From assembly GCA_958296135.2 (NCBI GenBank), contig CATQHZ020000001.1, positions 2,432,001 through 2,496,000 of the forward strand: a stretch of DNA of 64,000 bases, in the 5' to 3' direction. Shown here piece after piece: positions 12,878 through 18,881 of this stretch. Below the pieces are notes generated by a model. That model was not told where the DNA came from, searched no databases, and was given only the letters and a program-made list of their open reading frames with translations. How positions within the stretch are numbered: position 1 is the first letter of the stretch; each line of letters opens with the position of its first letter. Position numbers and translations under genes: made by a program. Origin of the DNA: an uncultured Poribacteria bacterium (lineage in GTDB: Bacteria > Poribacteria > WGA-4E > WGA-3G).

Positions 12878-14098
12878 CTATAAACGAGCCAATGCCTCCT
12901 GAATTTCCGTGATAACCCCCGGTTCGTCTTCAACGGCTAACCGAGTCTTTAATAGCCGCACGGCAGTCTCACCACCAATCTGCCCGACTGCCCACGCTGC
13001 GTGCCCTCGAATGAGGGGTTCATCGTCAGCTAACGCTATTTTAAGTGCAGGCAGCGCGGCACGCGCACCCCAATTGCCGATAGCCACCAGCACATTCCGC
13101 AGAAATCCCCGGCGCTTGGCACGCTTGATAGGACTCCCCTTAAACCGACTGCTGAACTCCACCTGTGTCATGTTGACAAGCGAAAGCAGCTCCGGCGCGA
13201 GATTACCCGCGCGCGGATAAAACGCCTGTTCAGTTGTAGGCATCGCCTTGCTGTTCCACGGGCAAACCTCTTGGCAGATGTCGCATCCAAAAATGAGGTT
13301 GCCCATCTTCGGGCGAAGTTCCATCGGGACGCTCTCCTTCAGTTCTATCGTAAGATAGGAGATGCACAACCGTGAATCCAAGACGTTCGGTGCAACAATA
13401 GCGTCTGTCGGGCAGGCCTCGATGCATCGCGTGCAGGTACCGCAGCTGCCTCGTGGCAGCGTGGCATGGCGAGGCACAGTCCCTCGCCCTACGGGAAAAT
13501 CGGGTACCTCTGTCGATTCTAACGGGACATTGACAAGCACCTCCGCGAGGAAATACCATGAACCGGAACGCCAATTGATAAGATTCGTATTCTTGCCTAT
13601 CCAACCGAGCCCAGCTTTTTGTGCGTATTCTCTCTCCAGAATCGGGGCAGTATCCACGCAAACCCGCGATGTGTATCCCGTTTCAGACAGCGTGCATCTC
13701 ATAAATTCGACAAGGTGTCGAAGGCGTTCCCGGATAACGTCGTGATAGTCGTCGCCCCATGCATAGCGTGAAATTTGCCCGCACCCCGGGTCTGTCGCGA
13801 GGGACTCGGGGGTATCCAGCGTGTAATAGTTCATCGCGAGACTAATGACAGACTTCGCCTCTGCGAGGAGCCGCCTCGGGTCTTCCTTGAGCGGCAAATG
13901 CTTTTCAAGGTAGTCCATTTTTCCGGCGTATCCGTTTTCAATCCAATCGCGATAACGCTGGAGCGTTTGACTTTGTGCCGCCGGTGTAACTCCGACGAGT
14001 GCGAAACCGAGTTCGTGGGCGCGCGTCTGGATCTGTTGAGTCAACGAGATTTTTTGTTGCAATCTGATTTCCCCCAGCTTTTTGTGCAACTGCAACAT
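12878..14098 (-). CDS. queG: tRNA epoxyqueuosine(34) reductase
   Basis: ISRYAWGDDYH, VDTAPILER, GWIGKN, CGTCTRCIEACPT, GCDICQEVCPWN, HEAT-like tail. Exact start uncertain. Confidence 0.93.
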   Translation of the reverse strand: MLQLHKKLGEIRLQQKISLTQQIQTRAHELGFALVGVTPAAQSQTLQRYRDWIENGYAGKMDYLEKHLPLKEDPRRLLAEAKSVISLAMNYYTLDTPESLATDPGCGQISRYAWGDDYHDVIRERLRHLVEFMRCTLSETGYTSRVCVDTAPILEREYAQKAGLGWIGKNTNLINWRSGSWYFLAEVLVNVPLESTEVPDFPVGRGTVPRHATLPRGSCGTCTRCIEACPTDAIVAPNVLDSRLCISYLTIELKESVPMELRPKMGNLIFGCDICQEVCPWNSKAMPTTEQAFYPRAGNLAPELLSLVNMTQVEFSSRFKGSPIKRAKRRGFLRNVLVAIGNWGARAALPALKIALADDEPLIRGHAAWAVGQIGGETAVRLLKTRLAVEDEPGVITEIQEALARL

Positions 14099-14121
14099 GG
14101 CGAGGGGGGCAGGCCCTCACC

Positions 14122-15222
14122 CTACGAACCACGGAAAGAACCGCGCGGATATGAACCCAGAATCTTGACACTCCGACACAAACCTTCAAGTTGCTCTAAT
14201 GCGGAGCAGACCTTTGGCTCGGCGACATGTCCATCCATCTCCACAAAGAAAATATACTCCCACGGTTCGGCGCGCGAAGGCAAAGACGCTAGGTAACTCA
14301 TATTGAGTCCATGTTTCTTTAAAATGCCGAGGACCTGATACAGCGCGCCGACTTTATCGCGAATCGCGAAGAAGAGCGATGTCCGGTCTGCCCCGCTTGG
14401 CTGCGCCTCACACTCGCCGATAACGAAGAACCGGGTGGTATTGTTCGGCTCATCCATGATGGAATCGGCGACGATTGGCACCTGATAAATGTCGCTAGCC
14501 AGGCTGCTGGCGATGGCACCCGCCATCGGTTCCGCCGCCGCACGCTGCGCCGCCACAGAAGTGCTGACAACCTCTACCTGCTCCACCGCTGTCATAAACC
14601 GGTTTAACCAGATGCGGCATTGCGCGAACGGCTGCCGATGCGAGTAAAGCCGCCGGATTTCCGCCAACGGTGACATGGAAAGCAGATGCTGTTTGACCGG
14701 TTGATAAACCTCGGCGCAAATTTTCAACGGAGTGCGTTGGAAACGTTCCAACACATCGCGCACCGTGCCCTGAACGGAGTTTTCAATCGCCACTACGCCA
14801 AAGTCCGCACGCCCAGCTTCGACCTCGGTGAAGATGTCGGCTTGCGGCTGCACCGGTATGAGCGCAACCGAGGAACCGAAATGGCATAAACTCGCGAGAT
14901 GTCCAAAACTACCGACGGGGCCAAGGAACGCCACCCGTTCCGGTGCTTGCAGCGCACGTGAAGCGGACAAAATCTCTGTCCAGACTGCCTCCACCGCGGC
15001 ATCTGAAAATGTCCCGTGGGCACCGTGGCTTCGGTTGCGCGCTTTCAAGCGTTCAATTACTTCCCGGTGGCGATGGGGGACGTAGACATTTGACGTACCG
15101 GTTTCTGTTTTAAAGGCACCTACCTGCTTAGAAATCTCCGCGCGTTTTTGCAACAGAGATAAAATCCGGTCGTCGATGTCGTTAATTGCATCGCGATAAT
15201 TTTCGAGTTCGGAATTTTTCAT
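14122..15222 (-). CDS. pheA: Chorismate mutase / prephenate dehydratase (P-protein)
   Basis: N-terminal CM_2 domain, VAFLGP.GSF, IENS, NTTRF, ACT domain with WEYIFFVE and ILGSYP. Confidence 0.93.
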   Translation of the reverse strand: MKNSELENYRDAINDIDDRILSLLQKRAEISKQVGAFKTETGTSNVYVPHRHREVIERLKARNRSHGAHGTFSDAAVEAVWTEILSASRALQAPERVAFLGPVGSFGHLASLCHFGSSVALIPVQPQADIFTEVEAGRADFGVVAIENSVQGTVRDVLERFQRTPLKICAEVYQPVKQHLLSMSPLAEIRRLYSHRQPFAQCRIWLNRFMTAVEQVEVVSTSVAAQRAAAEPMAGAIASSLASDIYQVPIVADSIMDEPNNTTRFFVIGECEAQPSGADRTSLFFAIRDKVGALYQVLGILKKHGLNMSYLASLPSRAEPWEYIFFVEMDGHVAEPKVCSALEQLEGLCRSVKILGSYPRGSFRGS

Positions 15223-15340
15223 CGTGCTCGCAGTATGACGAGGGACAACTTCCCCTCGCCCAACGATTCAGTGCGGCACGGCGAGGGACAGGTGCTCCCT
15301 CGCCCTACCGATAACAGGCGGATATGAACGACATCCACCT

Positions 15341-15586
15341 CTACGAGTTGAGTTGCCGCATAGCGGCAATCATCTCATCGTCTGAGGGGTTGTTTTGCAC
15401 CATATCAACGAACGCCTCAGCAGTTAACTTGTGTTCCTCCAGGAACATCTTGTCCTGTGGTCACGGGTAGATATAATCGCCGATGATGCCCTGCAGCCTG
15501 GCGTTGGCTTTATCGGCGATTCGGGCTAACCACGGGATGTTCCCGATGATCATATCCCGGTGCCTCGGTTTCCAATCAAGTGCCAT
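15341..15586 (-). CDS. Putative selenoprotein, DUF5069-like (81 aa, Sec at codon 42)
   Basis: Not in the ORF track. AGGAGG RBS then MALDWKPRHRDMIIGNIPWLARIADKANARLQGIIGDYIYP-(TGA 15463-15461)-PQDKMFLEEHKLTAEAFVDMVQNNPSDDEMIAAMRQLNS-TAG. The TGA sits at the Cys of the recalled GEYIYPCP.D motif. Confidence 0.82.
15432..15447 (-). promoter_or_regulatory. Bacterial SECIS-like hairpin
   Basis: UGUUCC-UGGA-GGAACA, starts 13 nt after the UGA, G at loop position 2. Confidence 0.7.
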
Positions 15587-15695
15587 AGTTTGCACCTCCT
15601 ATAAGGTAGGCGGATTATAGACTCTGCCTACCGGGTATTCCGTAGGCGCGGTTTCCAACCGCGCACGGATAACTCAGAAATTCCATAAGCGTGGT

Positions 15696-18600
15696 TTATT
15701 GTGCGTTTTCCTCAAGCCGCCTCAAAGTTTGCTCTAAAAGCCTGAGGTAGCGGCCGTATTCTGCCCACTTCCCGGCCCGCTGCGCGGTTTGCGCCTGCTT
15801 CAAATAGGTATTCGCCTGCTCAACGAGGCCACGCGCAGACGTTTCGCCAATAGGCTCTCCGGCACCCTCTGCCGCAGGCAGCATCGCGTCGGAAGCAGCC
15901 GGGGTATCCACGCCGAACATCTTGATGAGTGCCGCGTCAAAACTTTCACCCCAGACAACATTCTCTTTGTAACCGACAACAACGCGCCGCAACTCAGGAA
16001 TCGCTGTCTTCTCATCTTCCGACTGGATATAGATGGGTTCGACGTAAAGGAGCGAGTTGTTCATCGGCAGAATCAGCAGATTGCCGCGGAGAACACGTGA
16101 ACCTTGCGTATTCCATAGGCTGATCTGCTGCGAGATGTCGGGCTCCTGGCTAATGAAGTTTTCCACCTGCATCGGCCCCGGCACCAATTTCCCTTTCGGA
16201 AAGCGGTAGACAAGAAGCTGCCCGTATTGCGGCAGATCGCACCGCGCCGCCAACCATGCAGTCAGGTTCGGTTTGTTCCGCGGCGTAAACGGCAACATCA
16301 ACATGAATTCCGCCTTCTCCTGCCCTGGCAGCCGGATAACCACATAGTAGGGTTCAACGTCCTGAACGTTTGAGGGTGAACTTTGAACCACCGGGCGTTG
16401 CGGCGCAAACGGACCCGCTTGCTGCTGCGGCGCAATTTGCCGAGATTGCGAATCAGTGTTGTCATACAACTCTCTACCGATTTCCCACTGGTCCTCGCCC
16501 GCATAGAACGTGACCGGGTCTTTCATGTGGTAGTCTCGATAGACGTTGGCCTGGATAAGGAACATCCCCATCGGATAACGGATATGCGCTTTTAACTCCG
16601 AAGGCATTTCCTCAAACGATTTGAATAGATTCGGAAAGATTCTGTCGTAGCATGCCGCAATCGGGTCCTGCTCCTGCTCAACCCGGTAAAAATCAACCGT
16701 GCCATCATACGCATCAACGACGACTTTCACCGAATTTCGGATGTAGTTCCCCCACGGCTCACCGTCCCGCCGTGTCGGCGGCACAGGCCCTACAGTCCGC
16801 CGACGCGGCGTAAGTTCTCTCATCGAGAGCGAATAGGGATACCGGTGCGTGACAGTGTAGGCATCAATCATCCAAACCAGCCTGCCATTGTGTAGAATGA
16901 TATAAGGGTCTCCATCATAGCGTAAGAAGGGCGCGATTTTATGGACGCGCCTCTTGATATGCCGTTCATAGAGAACCCGACTCGTCGGCGTAATCTCGCC
17001 CGGCAGGATAAAGTTGATCTGCGTATCAAACTTCAACATGTAGACGAATTTGCGCCAGAACGACGTGAGCGGCACGCCGCCTTTGCCCTGATACGCGTTC
17101 ATGGCGTATCGCTGTCCCTCTTGCGGGTAATCAAATTCTAATGCCTCCGCCCGGTCCGGATGCACGATGACATACCGGTCGGTGCGTTCACCGTAGTAGA
17201 TACGCGGACCGGGCTCATCGTTGAAGCGGTGCGGCCAGTCCGGTGCATAGTCAATCGGCGGCAAGCCTTGAATGGACATGTTCGGTTTGCCGTTATCGAT
17301 CTCATTGACAGGACTCAAGACCGCGCCATACCCATGCGTATAGGTGTAAGTCTGCTTATACCAATCATTTCTTATCTCCGTAGGGAGTTCGTTGATGTTG
17401 AGCTCGCGCGCAGACAACATCACCTGCCGAATTTCATCGTCAATAGGATACCGGTCGATATCCACATCGTAGAAGTCATACTGCGAACGTAACTCTTGCA
17501 ACTGCCGGAAGGTTCTGCGCAACGGCCGCCAATCCCAAAGGCGAATGCTGTTAATAACCGGGGCGTTCTCAGGGCCCGTGATGTCGCTATAAGCGAGCTC
17601 CTCTGTGAGCGGATATTCCTTTTCGGTTACGGTGCTCCCCTCTAAGCCGTAAGCTTGGAGCGTCGCCTTGATGTTATAGTTGATAAACTCGGGCTCCAAC
17701 TCCTGTTTTCTCGGTTCAACCTGCCATGTCTGGACAAGCGTCGGGTAGAGCTGGCCGAGGACACCCGCAACGATAAAGACAGCAAACGCGCCGAAGGCAA
17801 CCCTGGTCCGCCGCAAGAAGATGCTAATGAAGAACACCAAGGCGCACAGCACTGTGAGCCCAAGCAACAGGTATAAAATCGGCAGGCGCGCGTGCATCGC
17901 CGCATATCCACCACCGGCACGCACCACATCGTTTGACGTATAGAGCAGATCGAACATGGCGAAGCGGTAGTTCCAGGCGCGAAATAGCAGCGTGACAGCA
18001 ACAAGGACGAACAGATGCGCTTTCACCGCAGGCGGCGGACGAAACCGGAGTTGGTTCGTATCGCCGGTGATGAGCCCGTGGAAAAAGTAGATGACGACAG
18101 AAAATATCGTCACTAACAAAAACATCCCGAAGAACGTCCCGCAAATGTACCGCTCCAACGGCATTTTAAAGACGTAGTAGGCGACATCCTTGTTGAAAAT
18201 CGGGTCGCGAGCGACTGACGTGAACGATGCTTCTTGCCCGGCCTCTACCTGGATAGTCGTATTCAGACGGAGCCCGTTTTCTAGCAACGCTTCCACGCGC
18301 GCTGTCTGGTTGTTTCCATCAACTCGAACGTTGATTTCATCGCCGACCTGGAGGTTCTTCGCTTGTAGTTCCAGTGGAGCAACTGGCACCTCAGCGGAAT
18401 TGAGAGAATCGGGTCCAGAGCTCCCCCCTACAAGGATAGGTGTAGCTGTTTGGAACTCAAGTCCATCGGCGTTCCGATAACGCAGCCAGAGCTCCCACCG
18501 GTCGCTGGCGGCATAACCCATGAAGATACTGAAGAGAACGGCGAGTAGTGCCAGCCCGCCGTAAATGAGTTTGCGCGTGTCGCCTCCACTTCCAAGCGAA

Positions 18601-18881
18601 CCGCCGGTGAATTCTGTGCCGCCCATAAAAGCGGGGCTCAGATGCGCCGGTGTGAACCGATAGAGGAGCGCGAGGTTCACCAACAGAATTATCGCATAGA
18701 CAAGCCCGACAAGCACCCCCATGCCGATTTGAGTCCACAGAATTTTGGCGTAAACCTCAAAGTAGTTCACCATCTCAAACCAGAGGAAATCGGGATAGAT
18801 GTTAATCCACGCGGCGAGACTACCGACGAGCACCGCGAGAATAATGATTGTGATAAAAGAACGTTTCATGCGTGAGTCCAT
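15696..18881 (-). CDS. UPF0182 family membrane protein
   Basis: DFLWF, DPIFNKDVAYYVF, IRLWDWRP, YTHGYG, NYIRNSVKVVVDAYDG, LLYVEPIY, IPELRRV. Confidence 0.93.
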   Translation of the reverse strand: MDSRMKRSFITIIILAVLVGSLAAWINIYPDFLWFEMVNYFEVYAKILWTQIGMGVLVGLVYAIILLVNLALLYRFTPAHLSPAFMGGTEFTGGSLGSGGDTRKLIYGGLALLAVLFSIFMGYAASDRWELWLRYRNADGLEFQTATPILVGGSSGPDSLNSAEVPVAPLELQAKNLQVGDEINVRVDGNNQTARVEALLENGLRLNTTIQVEAGQEASFTSVARDPIFNKDVAYYVFKMPLERYICGTFFGMFLLVTIFSVVIYFFHGLITGDTNQLRFRPPPAVKAHLFVLVAVTLLFRAWNYRFAMFDLLYTSNDVVRAGGGYAAMHARLPILYLLLGLTVLCALVFFISIFLRRTRVAFGAFAVFIVAGVLGQLYPTLVQTWQVEPRKQELEPEFINYNIKATLQAYGLEGSTVTEKEYPLTEELAYSDITGPENAPVINSIRLWDWRPLRRTFRQLQELRSQYDFYDVDIDRYPIDDEIRQVMLSARELNINELPTEIRNDWYKQTYTYTHGYGAVLSPVNEIDNGKPNMSIQGLPPIDYAPDWPHRFNDEPGPRIYYGERTDRYVIVHPDRAEALEFDYPQEGQRYAMNAYQGKGGVPLTSFWRKFVYMLKFDTQINFILPGEITPTSRVLYERHIKRRVHKIAPFLRYDGDPYIILHNGRLVWMIDAYTVTHRYPYSLSMRELTPRRRTVGPVPPTRRDGEPWGNYIRNSVKVVVDAYDGTVDFYRVEQEQDPIAACYDRIFPNLFKSFEEMPSELKAHIRYPMGMFLIQANVYRDYHMKDPVTFYAGEDQWEIGRELYDNTDSQSRQIAPQQQAGPFAPQRPVVQSSPSNVQDVEPYYVVIRLPGQEKAEFMLMLPFTPRNKPNLTAWLAARCDLPQYGQLLVYRFPKGKLVPGPMQVENFISQEPDISQQISLWNTQGSRVLRGNLLILPMNNSLLYVEPIYIQSEDEKTAIPELRRVVVGYKENVVWGESFDAALIKMFGVDTPAASDAMLPAAEGAGEPIGETSARGLVEQANTYLKQAQTAQRAGKWAEYGRYLRLLEQTLRRLEENAQ

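Follow-up and report, generated by a model that had tools for sequence, protein, structure and literature searches.

Recoding of UGA as selenocysteine (Sec) by SelB and a selenocysteine insertion sequence (SECIS) has its canonical bacterial example in E. coli fdhF. Here we describe a candidate case from an uncultured Poribacteria bacterium, in a 64,000-nucleotide stretch of assembly GCA_958296135.2 (contig CATQHZ020000001.1, positions 2,432,001 to 2,496,000 of the forward strand; hereafter the window). A short gene on the minus strand, at 15341-15586, would be read there through an in-frame TGA. As in fdhF and in selD of the same genome, this UGA is followed after about 12-14 nucleotides by a short G+C-containing stem carrying a small, G-rich apical loop. 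The element in the window differs in that only five base pairs are conserved, the loop is UGGA and no conserved lower stem was found, and its binding by SelB is presumed. We consider it probable, at roughly 0.9 judging from sequence, that this is a genuine Sec-encoding gene that had previously gone unannotated. Computation established that its recoding signals are conserved, that Sec alternates with Cys at the site, and that the product belongs to the DUF5069 family.

Several other groups of proteins invite comparison. Table 1 of a May 2026 review (PMC13188914) gives 119 prokaryotic selenoprotein families and subfamilies with domain identifiers, and the predicted families in it that are based on domains of unknown function (DUF523, DUF166, DUF1573, DUF3179 and DUF1858) resemble the present case in having a Sec/Cys pair, TGA orthologs and a SECIS-like hairpin. 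Most families in that table (PMC13188914) have a UxxC, CxxU or similar two-residue motif, whereas the window protein carries its only Sec within Y-P-U-P-x-D and lacks Cys altogether. Thioredoxin-fold selenoproteins (Trx, Grx, Prx and GPx-like) are likewise small, with Sec directly before a helix as in our model, but the window protein has no thioredoxin-like match at E ≤ 0.001 and lacks both a CxxU or UxxC motif and a resolving Cys. A Sec or Cys directly ahead of a helix is the usual setting of a reactive residue. With the DUF5069 family (Pfam PF16798) and the solved structure 3omd there are significant profile and fold matches, and R22, K26, C/U42 and D45 are held in common; the window protein differs in having Sec for Cys, 81 rather than 145 residues, and only the N-terminal half of the Pfam domain.

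In the mechanism that we propose, the ribosome would start at the ATG behind AGGAGG, SelB with Sec-tRNA(Sec) would be recruited at UGA codon 42 by the mRNA hairpin GUUCC-UGGA-GGAAC, and Sec would be inserted, after which translation would run on to TAG and yield a product of 81 residues. The frame consists of 81 sense codons and TAG, with the TGA at codon 42 as its sole interruption. An initial annotation, made by a model from the letters of the window, had pointed to an AGGAGG, an ATG and a frame broken only by this TGA, filling an apparent gap between a UPF0182 gene and pheA, with both halves shorter than 60 residues. All of this was borne out: the signals lie on the minus strand, both neighbours have the corresponding Pfam matches, and a standard open reading frame (ORF) listing yields two halves only, of 44 and 35 residues. 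The upstream in-frame translation of the orthologs reads ...KEVKQM, so the AGGAGG-containing stretch is itself conserved.

Conservation of the TGA codon and its alternation with cysteine

The in-frame TGA is shared throughout the order to which the genome belongs. In each of the genomes searched (61/61; four families, 13 genera) the ortholog, 63-99% identical, contains one TGA and no more; the initial annotation had allowed that close relatives might all carry a sense codon there, which is not so. We fetched 124 ortholog loci and parsed 122 of them by pattern, and the two that were missed (L135 and L136) also have the TGA and the hairpin core. TGA occupies the site in 109 of 110 distinct coding sequences and TGC in the remaining one (L123). 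Each of the TGA forms (109/109) encodes a single chalcogen residue, with one Sec and no Cys.

A census of the phylum, for which the query was a natural Cys-form protein (P0010), found an ortholog in 168 of 176 genomes (~95%). Among the 150 matches listed, out of 169, one TGA is present in 142 and no stop in eight, so that the alternation of TGA with TGC proposed as a check in the initial annotation is indeed seen. All eight stop-free matches listed fall in one family-level clade (f8) and have Cys at the site, encoded by TGC in seven and TGT in one. The Cys orthologs within the phylum are P0010, P0013, L123 and those of the eight f8 genomes. Loss of the Sec trait was considered as the cause of the Sec/Cys split and rejected, because the Cys-form clade keeps selB in 5/5 genomes. 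A search of 1.84 billion representative proteins returned 152 matches at E ≤ 0.001. In 144 homologous domains that span the site, the residue aligned with the TGA is Cys in 112, Ser in 19 and another residue in 13; Cys is also what 3omd has there, as the initial annotation had stated for DUF5069. Twelve further database entries are truncated precisely after residue 41.

Public databases hold the gene in several damaged forms. Entries P0002-P0009, P0011 and P0012 have the site translated as W, and mostly come from short contigs of 530-896 bases; entries P0014-P0017 end at YIYP, and P0019 and P0020 start at MFLEE, as truncated halves. Several N-terminal fragments carry false upstream extensions. 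Two of the YIYP-ending fragments come from NCBI records, which means that NCBI does not annotate the gene as a selenoprotein.

One clade of orthologs (L095, L097, L105-L109 and L112) has a Lys/Ser-rich C-terminal extension (...KPSKKRKSK.RK.), and its gene ends in a second TGA. A single mRNA would there carry a recoded UGA with a hairpin, and then a terminating UGA without one.

Selection on the protein continues past the TGA. The ratio of nonsynonymous to synonymous divergence (pN/pS) is 0.147 for codons 2-41 and stays low, at 0.195, for codons 43-80, which argues that the downstream half is translated. M47 is not a separate downstream start, since many orthologs have K, L, V, R or S in its place.

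The downstream hairpin and the selenocysteine machinery

Codon usage at the hairpin is nearly invariant. We tallied 104 in-register orthologs from the 109 TGA forms, leaving out four with a one-codon insertion and one with an N; codons 48-51 are TTC (104/104), CTG (104/104), GAG (104/104) and GAA (103/104). The same amino acids vary in codon elsewhere: F59 is TTC in 56 and TTT in 48, E61 is GAG in 42 and GAA in 44, and four other Leu sites use five or six codons each. Synonymous divergence (pS) is 0.009 in codons 48-51 versus 0.60-0.67 in the rest of the gene. Outside the hairpin, near-frozen synonymous sites are D4 (GAT in 103/104) and K6 (AAA in 103/104), at window 15569-15577, and A56 (GCT in 98/104), at 15419-15421, all on the minus strand. 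D4 and K6 may reflect a constraint on translation initiation, and A56 may be an extension of the SECIS context.

Base pairing was assessed in an alignment (A2) of 95 of 96 distinct 66-nucleotide segments, from which L123, being a Cys form, was deliberately excluded; L137, with an N, had been removed at an earlier stage. The five core pairs are standard in 95/95 segments. Variants within the stem occur in three only, one A-U, one G-U and one U-G, and pairing is kept in them. A conserved lower stem, suggested by RNAfold of the window sequence, was not supported by RNAalifold on the 95 sequences.

The hairpin follows the TGA rather than the protein. It is missing from 8/8 Cys-form orthologs of f8, in which the peptide at the same place varies (FLEK, WLQK, FLQR, FLER, FLKQ and WLRK), so it is the RNA element, not the protein, that dictates the conserved 'FLEE' peptide of the TGA forms. 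In TGA forms from other families of the class, the 14-mer is kept exactly (5/5), and it has a single occurrence in the genome of the window.

A metagenome scan that was blind to the hairpin, its pattern ending at the TGA, gave 33 matches, comprising six chance matches and 27 family members. Three of the members are ended by a contig edge; the 24 that can be assessed include 19 with the exact core, one with a wobble variant and four with a different sequence (L170, L173, L181 and L196). These four are 49-58% identical to the window protein and keep the TGA. Folding places in L173 an 8-bp stem with a GGA loop starting 20 nucleotides after the UGA, in L196 a GCUC-GGC-GAGC hairpin atop a lower stem with the loop at 21 nucleotides, and in L170 a 6-bp stem with a CUUGA loop at 18 nucleotides. 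The computed minimum-energy fold of L181 differs, but when drawn by hand an L173-like stem with a UGGAU loop could form.

The bacterial SECIS (bSECIS) model, as set out in PMC13188914, has a loop of 3-9 nucleotides, an upper stem of 4-16 bp, a G in the first two loop positions, a UGA-to-loop distance of 16-37 nucleotides and a minimum free energy (MFE) of at most -7.5 kcal/mol. The window element fits within these limits: its UGGA loop has four nucleotides with G at position 2 followed by another G, its stem has 5-6 bp, its spacing is 19 nucleotides, and a 45-nucleotide fold that contains the hairpin has an energy of -9.0 kcal/mol.

The genome also encodes what is needed to insert Sec. We found selB (317 bits), selA (596 bits), selD (350 bits) and tRNA-Sec (78 bits), all over their curated cut-offs; a genome lacking this machinery, which the initial annotation had named as grounds for abandoning its proposal, is therefore not what we have here. 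The selB and tRNA-Sec genes lie side by side on the minus strand at C1:2394175-2396223, ~36-38 kilobases before the window. The selD gene (C1:2864299-2865270) itself has an in-frame TGA at KCAGU, a known Sec site, with a SECIS-like hairpin in which 12 nucleotides separate the UGA from GCUCC-GGG-GGAGC. Further TGA-form genomes have selB as well (5/5).

DUF5069 membership and the weight of the evidence

Read through the TGA, the window protein matches Pfam DUF5069 (PF16798) at E = 9.9e-13, and this is its sole significant Pfam match. Among solved structures, a profile of 54 relatives gives one match, PDB 3omd, at E = 2.7e-35. This is a 145-residue 'Uncharacterized protein' of Leptospirillum rubarum with Cys at the position aligned with the TGA. 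The AlphaFold2 model (mean predicted local distance difference test score 91.7) has a small beta-hairpin and four helices, with residue 42 immediately ahead of helix 43-51. Foldseek aligns it to 3omd with a template modelling score of 0.86 (normalised by query length), a root-mean-square deviation of 1.1 Å over 74 columns and a probability of 1.00. The motif of the family around the site is G-[DE]-Y-x-Y-P-[C/U]-P-x-D, in which Sec takes the place of the family's single conserved Cys; the alignment consensus agrees with the motif given in the initial annotation (LAR.IDKARA ... GEYIYPCP.D). R22, K26 and D45 are invariant in an alignment (A3) of relatives picked from matches with Cys at the site, and since its sequences were chosen for that Cys, the 'invariant C42' of A3 is true by construction.

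The same genome also has a 422-residue paralog at C1 ~3927610-3928878 (L150:611-1879, minus strand), with three tandem DUF5069-like repeats in which the motif reads Y-x-Y-G-[ED]-x-S, with no Cys at the Sec/Cys position. Stop-free frames of ~390-510 residues with one to three matched stretches, like this paralog, occur in most genomes of the order.

A number of observations weigh against reading the locus as a Sec-encoding DUF5069 gene with a SECIS, or against parts of that reading. The DUF5069 assignment made in the initial annotation passed the Pfam cut-off (48.8 bits against a gathering cut-off of 27), but the window protein aligns only to positions 4-74 of the 133-position PF16798 profile and so does not cover the whole domain. 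Because half of the profile is matched, and because many relatives of 85-100 residues share the same short form, we regard the protein as belonging to a short-form DUF5069 subfamily and not as a full-length member. Cys is not universal in DUF5069, with Ser in 19 of the 144 domains (13%), which calls for caution over a strictly redox reading, and the Cys-form clade has selB in 5/5 genomes, so trait loss does not explain the Sec/Cys split. At E ≤ 0.001 Foldseek gives 3omd alone, with no other structural analogue to indicate function, and no gene neighbour is conserved across lineages to support a particular function.

The hairpin has weaknesses of its own. The perfect 6-bp stem, 13 nucleotides after the UGA, that had been described in the initial annotation is present in the window, but the conserved stem is 5 bp long: among the 95 segments the sixth, outer pair (23-38) is U-A in 70, A-U in two and unpaired in 23, and the next (22-39) is paired in 45 and unpaired in 50. 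As for the covariation that the annotation had hoped to see, pairing is kept in 95/95 core stems, but with only three variant sequences, one A-U and two wobbles, it is thin. The L170 loop, CUUGA, has no G in its first two positions. By RNAalifold the 5-bp consensus stem alone has an energy of -5.68 kcal/mol, and MFE folds of 58 and 63 nucleotides of the window sequence prefer other pairings, in which the hairpin is absent. MFE z-scores against shuffles were insignificant for all six sequences folded (+0.14 for the 58-nucleotide fold of the window). Taken alone, then, the hairpin is not beyond chance, and it is the comparative evidence that lifts the case far above it.

The same comparative evidence bears on the ways in which the TGA could be explained without Sec. 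It could be recoded to another amino acid, by a near-cognate or suppressor tRNA (Trp, Cys, Arg or Gly) or through a lineage-wide reassignment of TGA, and the W shown at the site by ten public entries would fit. These entries, however, lie mostly on contigs of 530-896 bases, consistent with gene callers choosing a TGA=W code, and the site aligns with Cys, not Trp. TGA is otherwise a normal stop, ending 565 of the 2476 stop-to-stop frames in the genome that are 300 codons or longer, and in one clade the gene's own terminal stop is a second TGA. Given in addition a SECIS-type hairpin that goes with TGA and is missing from Cys forms, and a full Sec machinery, we regard non-Sec recoding as unlikely. 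It is harder still to accept the TGA as a real stop that leaves a 41-residue peptide only, or two separate small genes. ORF calling does give two halves, and databases do hold fragments that end at YIYP or start at MFLEE, but the downstream half is under purifying selection in frame (pN/pS 0.195) and aligns to the DUF5069 profile and to 3omd as part of one continuous domain, Cys orthologs run uninterrupted through the site, and many orthologs lack M47, the putative internal start, with K, L, V, R or S standing there instead.

Least credible of the explanations considered is that the gene is a pseudogene carrying a strain-specific or recently fixed nonsense mutation. Against the single in-frame stop and the missing annotation, which it would account for, stand the same TGA in 61/61 genomes of the order at 63-99% protein identity, in 142 of the 150 phylum matches listed and in metagenome lineages 49-58% identical, a low pN/pS on either side of it, and 110 distinct coding sequences that are not assembly copies of one. 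It is also conceivable that the frozen 14-nucleotide element is something other than a SECIS, e.g. an inverted repeat bound by a protein on the DNA, or a site of translational pausing, and stands after the TGA by coincidence; the element is near-palindromic in DNA, and its folding energy is unremarkable. We consider this very improbable, since the element accompanies the TGA forms that have enough sequence and is missing from 8/8 Cys forms, and since divergent lineages swap its sequence yet keep a hairpin 18-21 nucleotides after the UGA (three folded, L181 by hand). Its geometry also agrees with the published bSECIS model, it is similar to the SECIS of selD in this genome, and as a 14-mer it occurs there once only. 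We thus favor Sec insertion at this codon.

Locus, chemistry and meaning

The features of the locus are collected in the table below. A Pfam scan of the flanking genes also found a QueG-like gene after pheA. A promoter and terminator scan gave nothing on the strand of the DUF5069 gene, a look for RNA sequencing runs that include the stretch came up with none listed, and an Rfam scan of window 14000-17000 found no known RNA family at the hairpin site. The latter scan gave a weak fluoride-riboswitch-like match inside pheA on the opposite strand (14500-14583, plus; 17.5 bits against a gathering score of 34, E = 0.15), most likely by chance.

Features of the Sec-DUF5069 locus, in window coordinates
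Feature	Position	Strand	Remarks
Sec-containing short-form DUF5069 coding sequence (candidate), 81 residues	15341-15586	minus	ATG 15584-15586, TAG 15341-15343; TGA read as U
In-frame TGA, codon 42, candidate Sec codon	15461-15463	minus	context ...GDYIYP-U-PQDKMFLEEH...
Shine-Dalgarno sequence AGGAGG	15595-15600	minus	8 nucleotides ahead of ATG; read from sequence
SECIS-like hairpin UGUUCC-UGGA-GGAACA	15432-15447	minus	starts 13 nucleotides after TGA
Conserved 5-bp hairpin core GUUCC-UGGA-GGAAC	15433-15446	minus	14 nucleotides after UGA; apical loop starts 19 nucleotides after UGA
pheA, downstream neighbour (context)	14122-15222	minus	Pfam CM_2, PDT and ACT domains: chorismate mutase / prephenate dehydratase / ACT
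UPF0182 family gene, upstream neighbour (context)	15696-18881	minus	Pfam PF03699, 805.7 bits

Genomic context offered no route to a function. pheA adjoins the gene in 108 of 124 ortholog loci, but in divergent TGA-form lineages the gene is flanked differently, by an RsmD-like methyltransferase, a response regulator, or a flavin adenine dinucleotide (FAD) oxidoreductase with an integrase. Adjacency to pheA is thus lineage synteny only, and we rejected it as a functional link. Domain fusions in relatives (P0106, P0043, P0100 and P0166) join DUF5069 to an AI-2E family transporter, a class I methyltransferase, DUF2249 and a CO-dehydrogenase flavoprotein C-terminal domain, partners too varied to indicate one function, and this route was rejected as well.

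The Sec-containing DUF5069 family is probably undescribed. Neither PF16798 nor any other model that matches the window protein is in Table 1 of the review, where the cd and PTHR entries were compared by name only (PMC13188914); by name, these are thioredoxin-like, CopZ-like, BtuF and Fe-S oxidoreductase proteins. An NCBIfam scan of the window protein gave no model at E ≤ 1, which excludes the NF and TIGR entries of the same table. DUF5069 is not among the nine new families of deep-Sep (PMC12013277) and is not mentioned in the main text of BSepDB (PMC13326102), whose family list is supplementary. In our literature search we found no paper mentioning DUF5069, and for 3OMD only an unrelated abbreviation. 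The initial annotation had not known of it as a described selenoprotein family either, and Table 1 of the review, NCBIfam and the literature searched gave no prior description. The supplementary lists (BSepDB Table S2 and deep-Sep Table S2) could hold the family under another name.

What might the Sec do? Sec is almost always found at a catalytic position, and the conserved Cys of DUF5069 is therefore marked as the residue to mutate and assay. With one Sec and no Cys in 109/109 TGA forms, with R22, K26 and D45 invariant in the Cys-form alignment A3, and with Sec preceding a helix in the model, we infer that the Sec acts as a nucleophilic or redox-active centre that has no internal resolving thiol. 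It could form a selenenylsulfide with an external thiol or a partner, carry a chalcogen, or serve as a metal ligand, and it may lie near a basic patch able to hold an anionic substrate or partner. According to the review, most selenoproteins are thought to be redox proteins (PMC13188914).

More tentatively, and with more doubt than support for now, we suggest that Sec-DUF5069 is an unrecognized core selenoprotein of sponge-associated Poribacteria that is also found in other marine lineages, and that its lone Sec is where a new single-chalcogen class of enzymes or carriers has its active site. Such a protein might be a 1-Sec peroxidase or reductase drawing on an external thiol, or might relay sulfur or selenium.

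These findings add to the prokaryotic selenoproteins a well-supported candidate family, with a standard mechanism, in a phylum for which metagenomes are the sole source. Almost all genomes of the phylum have the gene, yet public annotation either omits or mistranslates it. The alternation, inside one phylum, of TGA plus hairpin with TGC or TGT without a hairpin provides a natural experiment on the evolution of the SECIS, and it carries a lesson on peptide conservation, as 'FLEE' is kept for the RNA and not for the protein. For DUF5069 itself, a family with a solved structure (3omd), its conserved Cys becomes a functional lead. Should the lone Sec prove to be the active site of a single-chalcogen class, this would be the first testable chemistry for the whole DUF5069 family.

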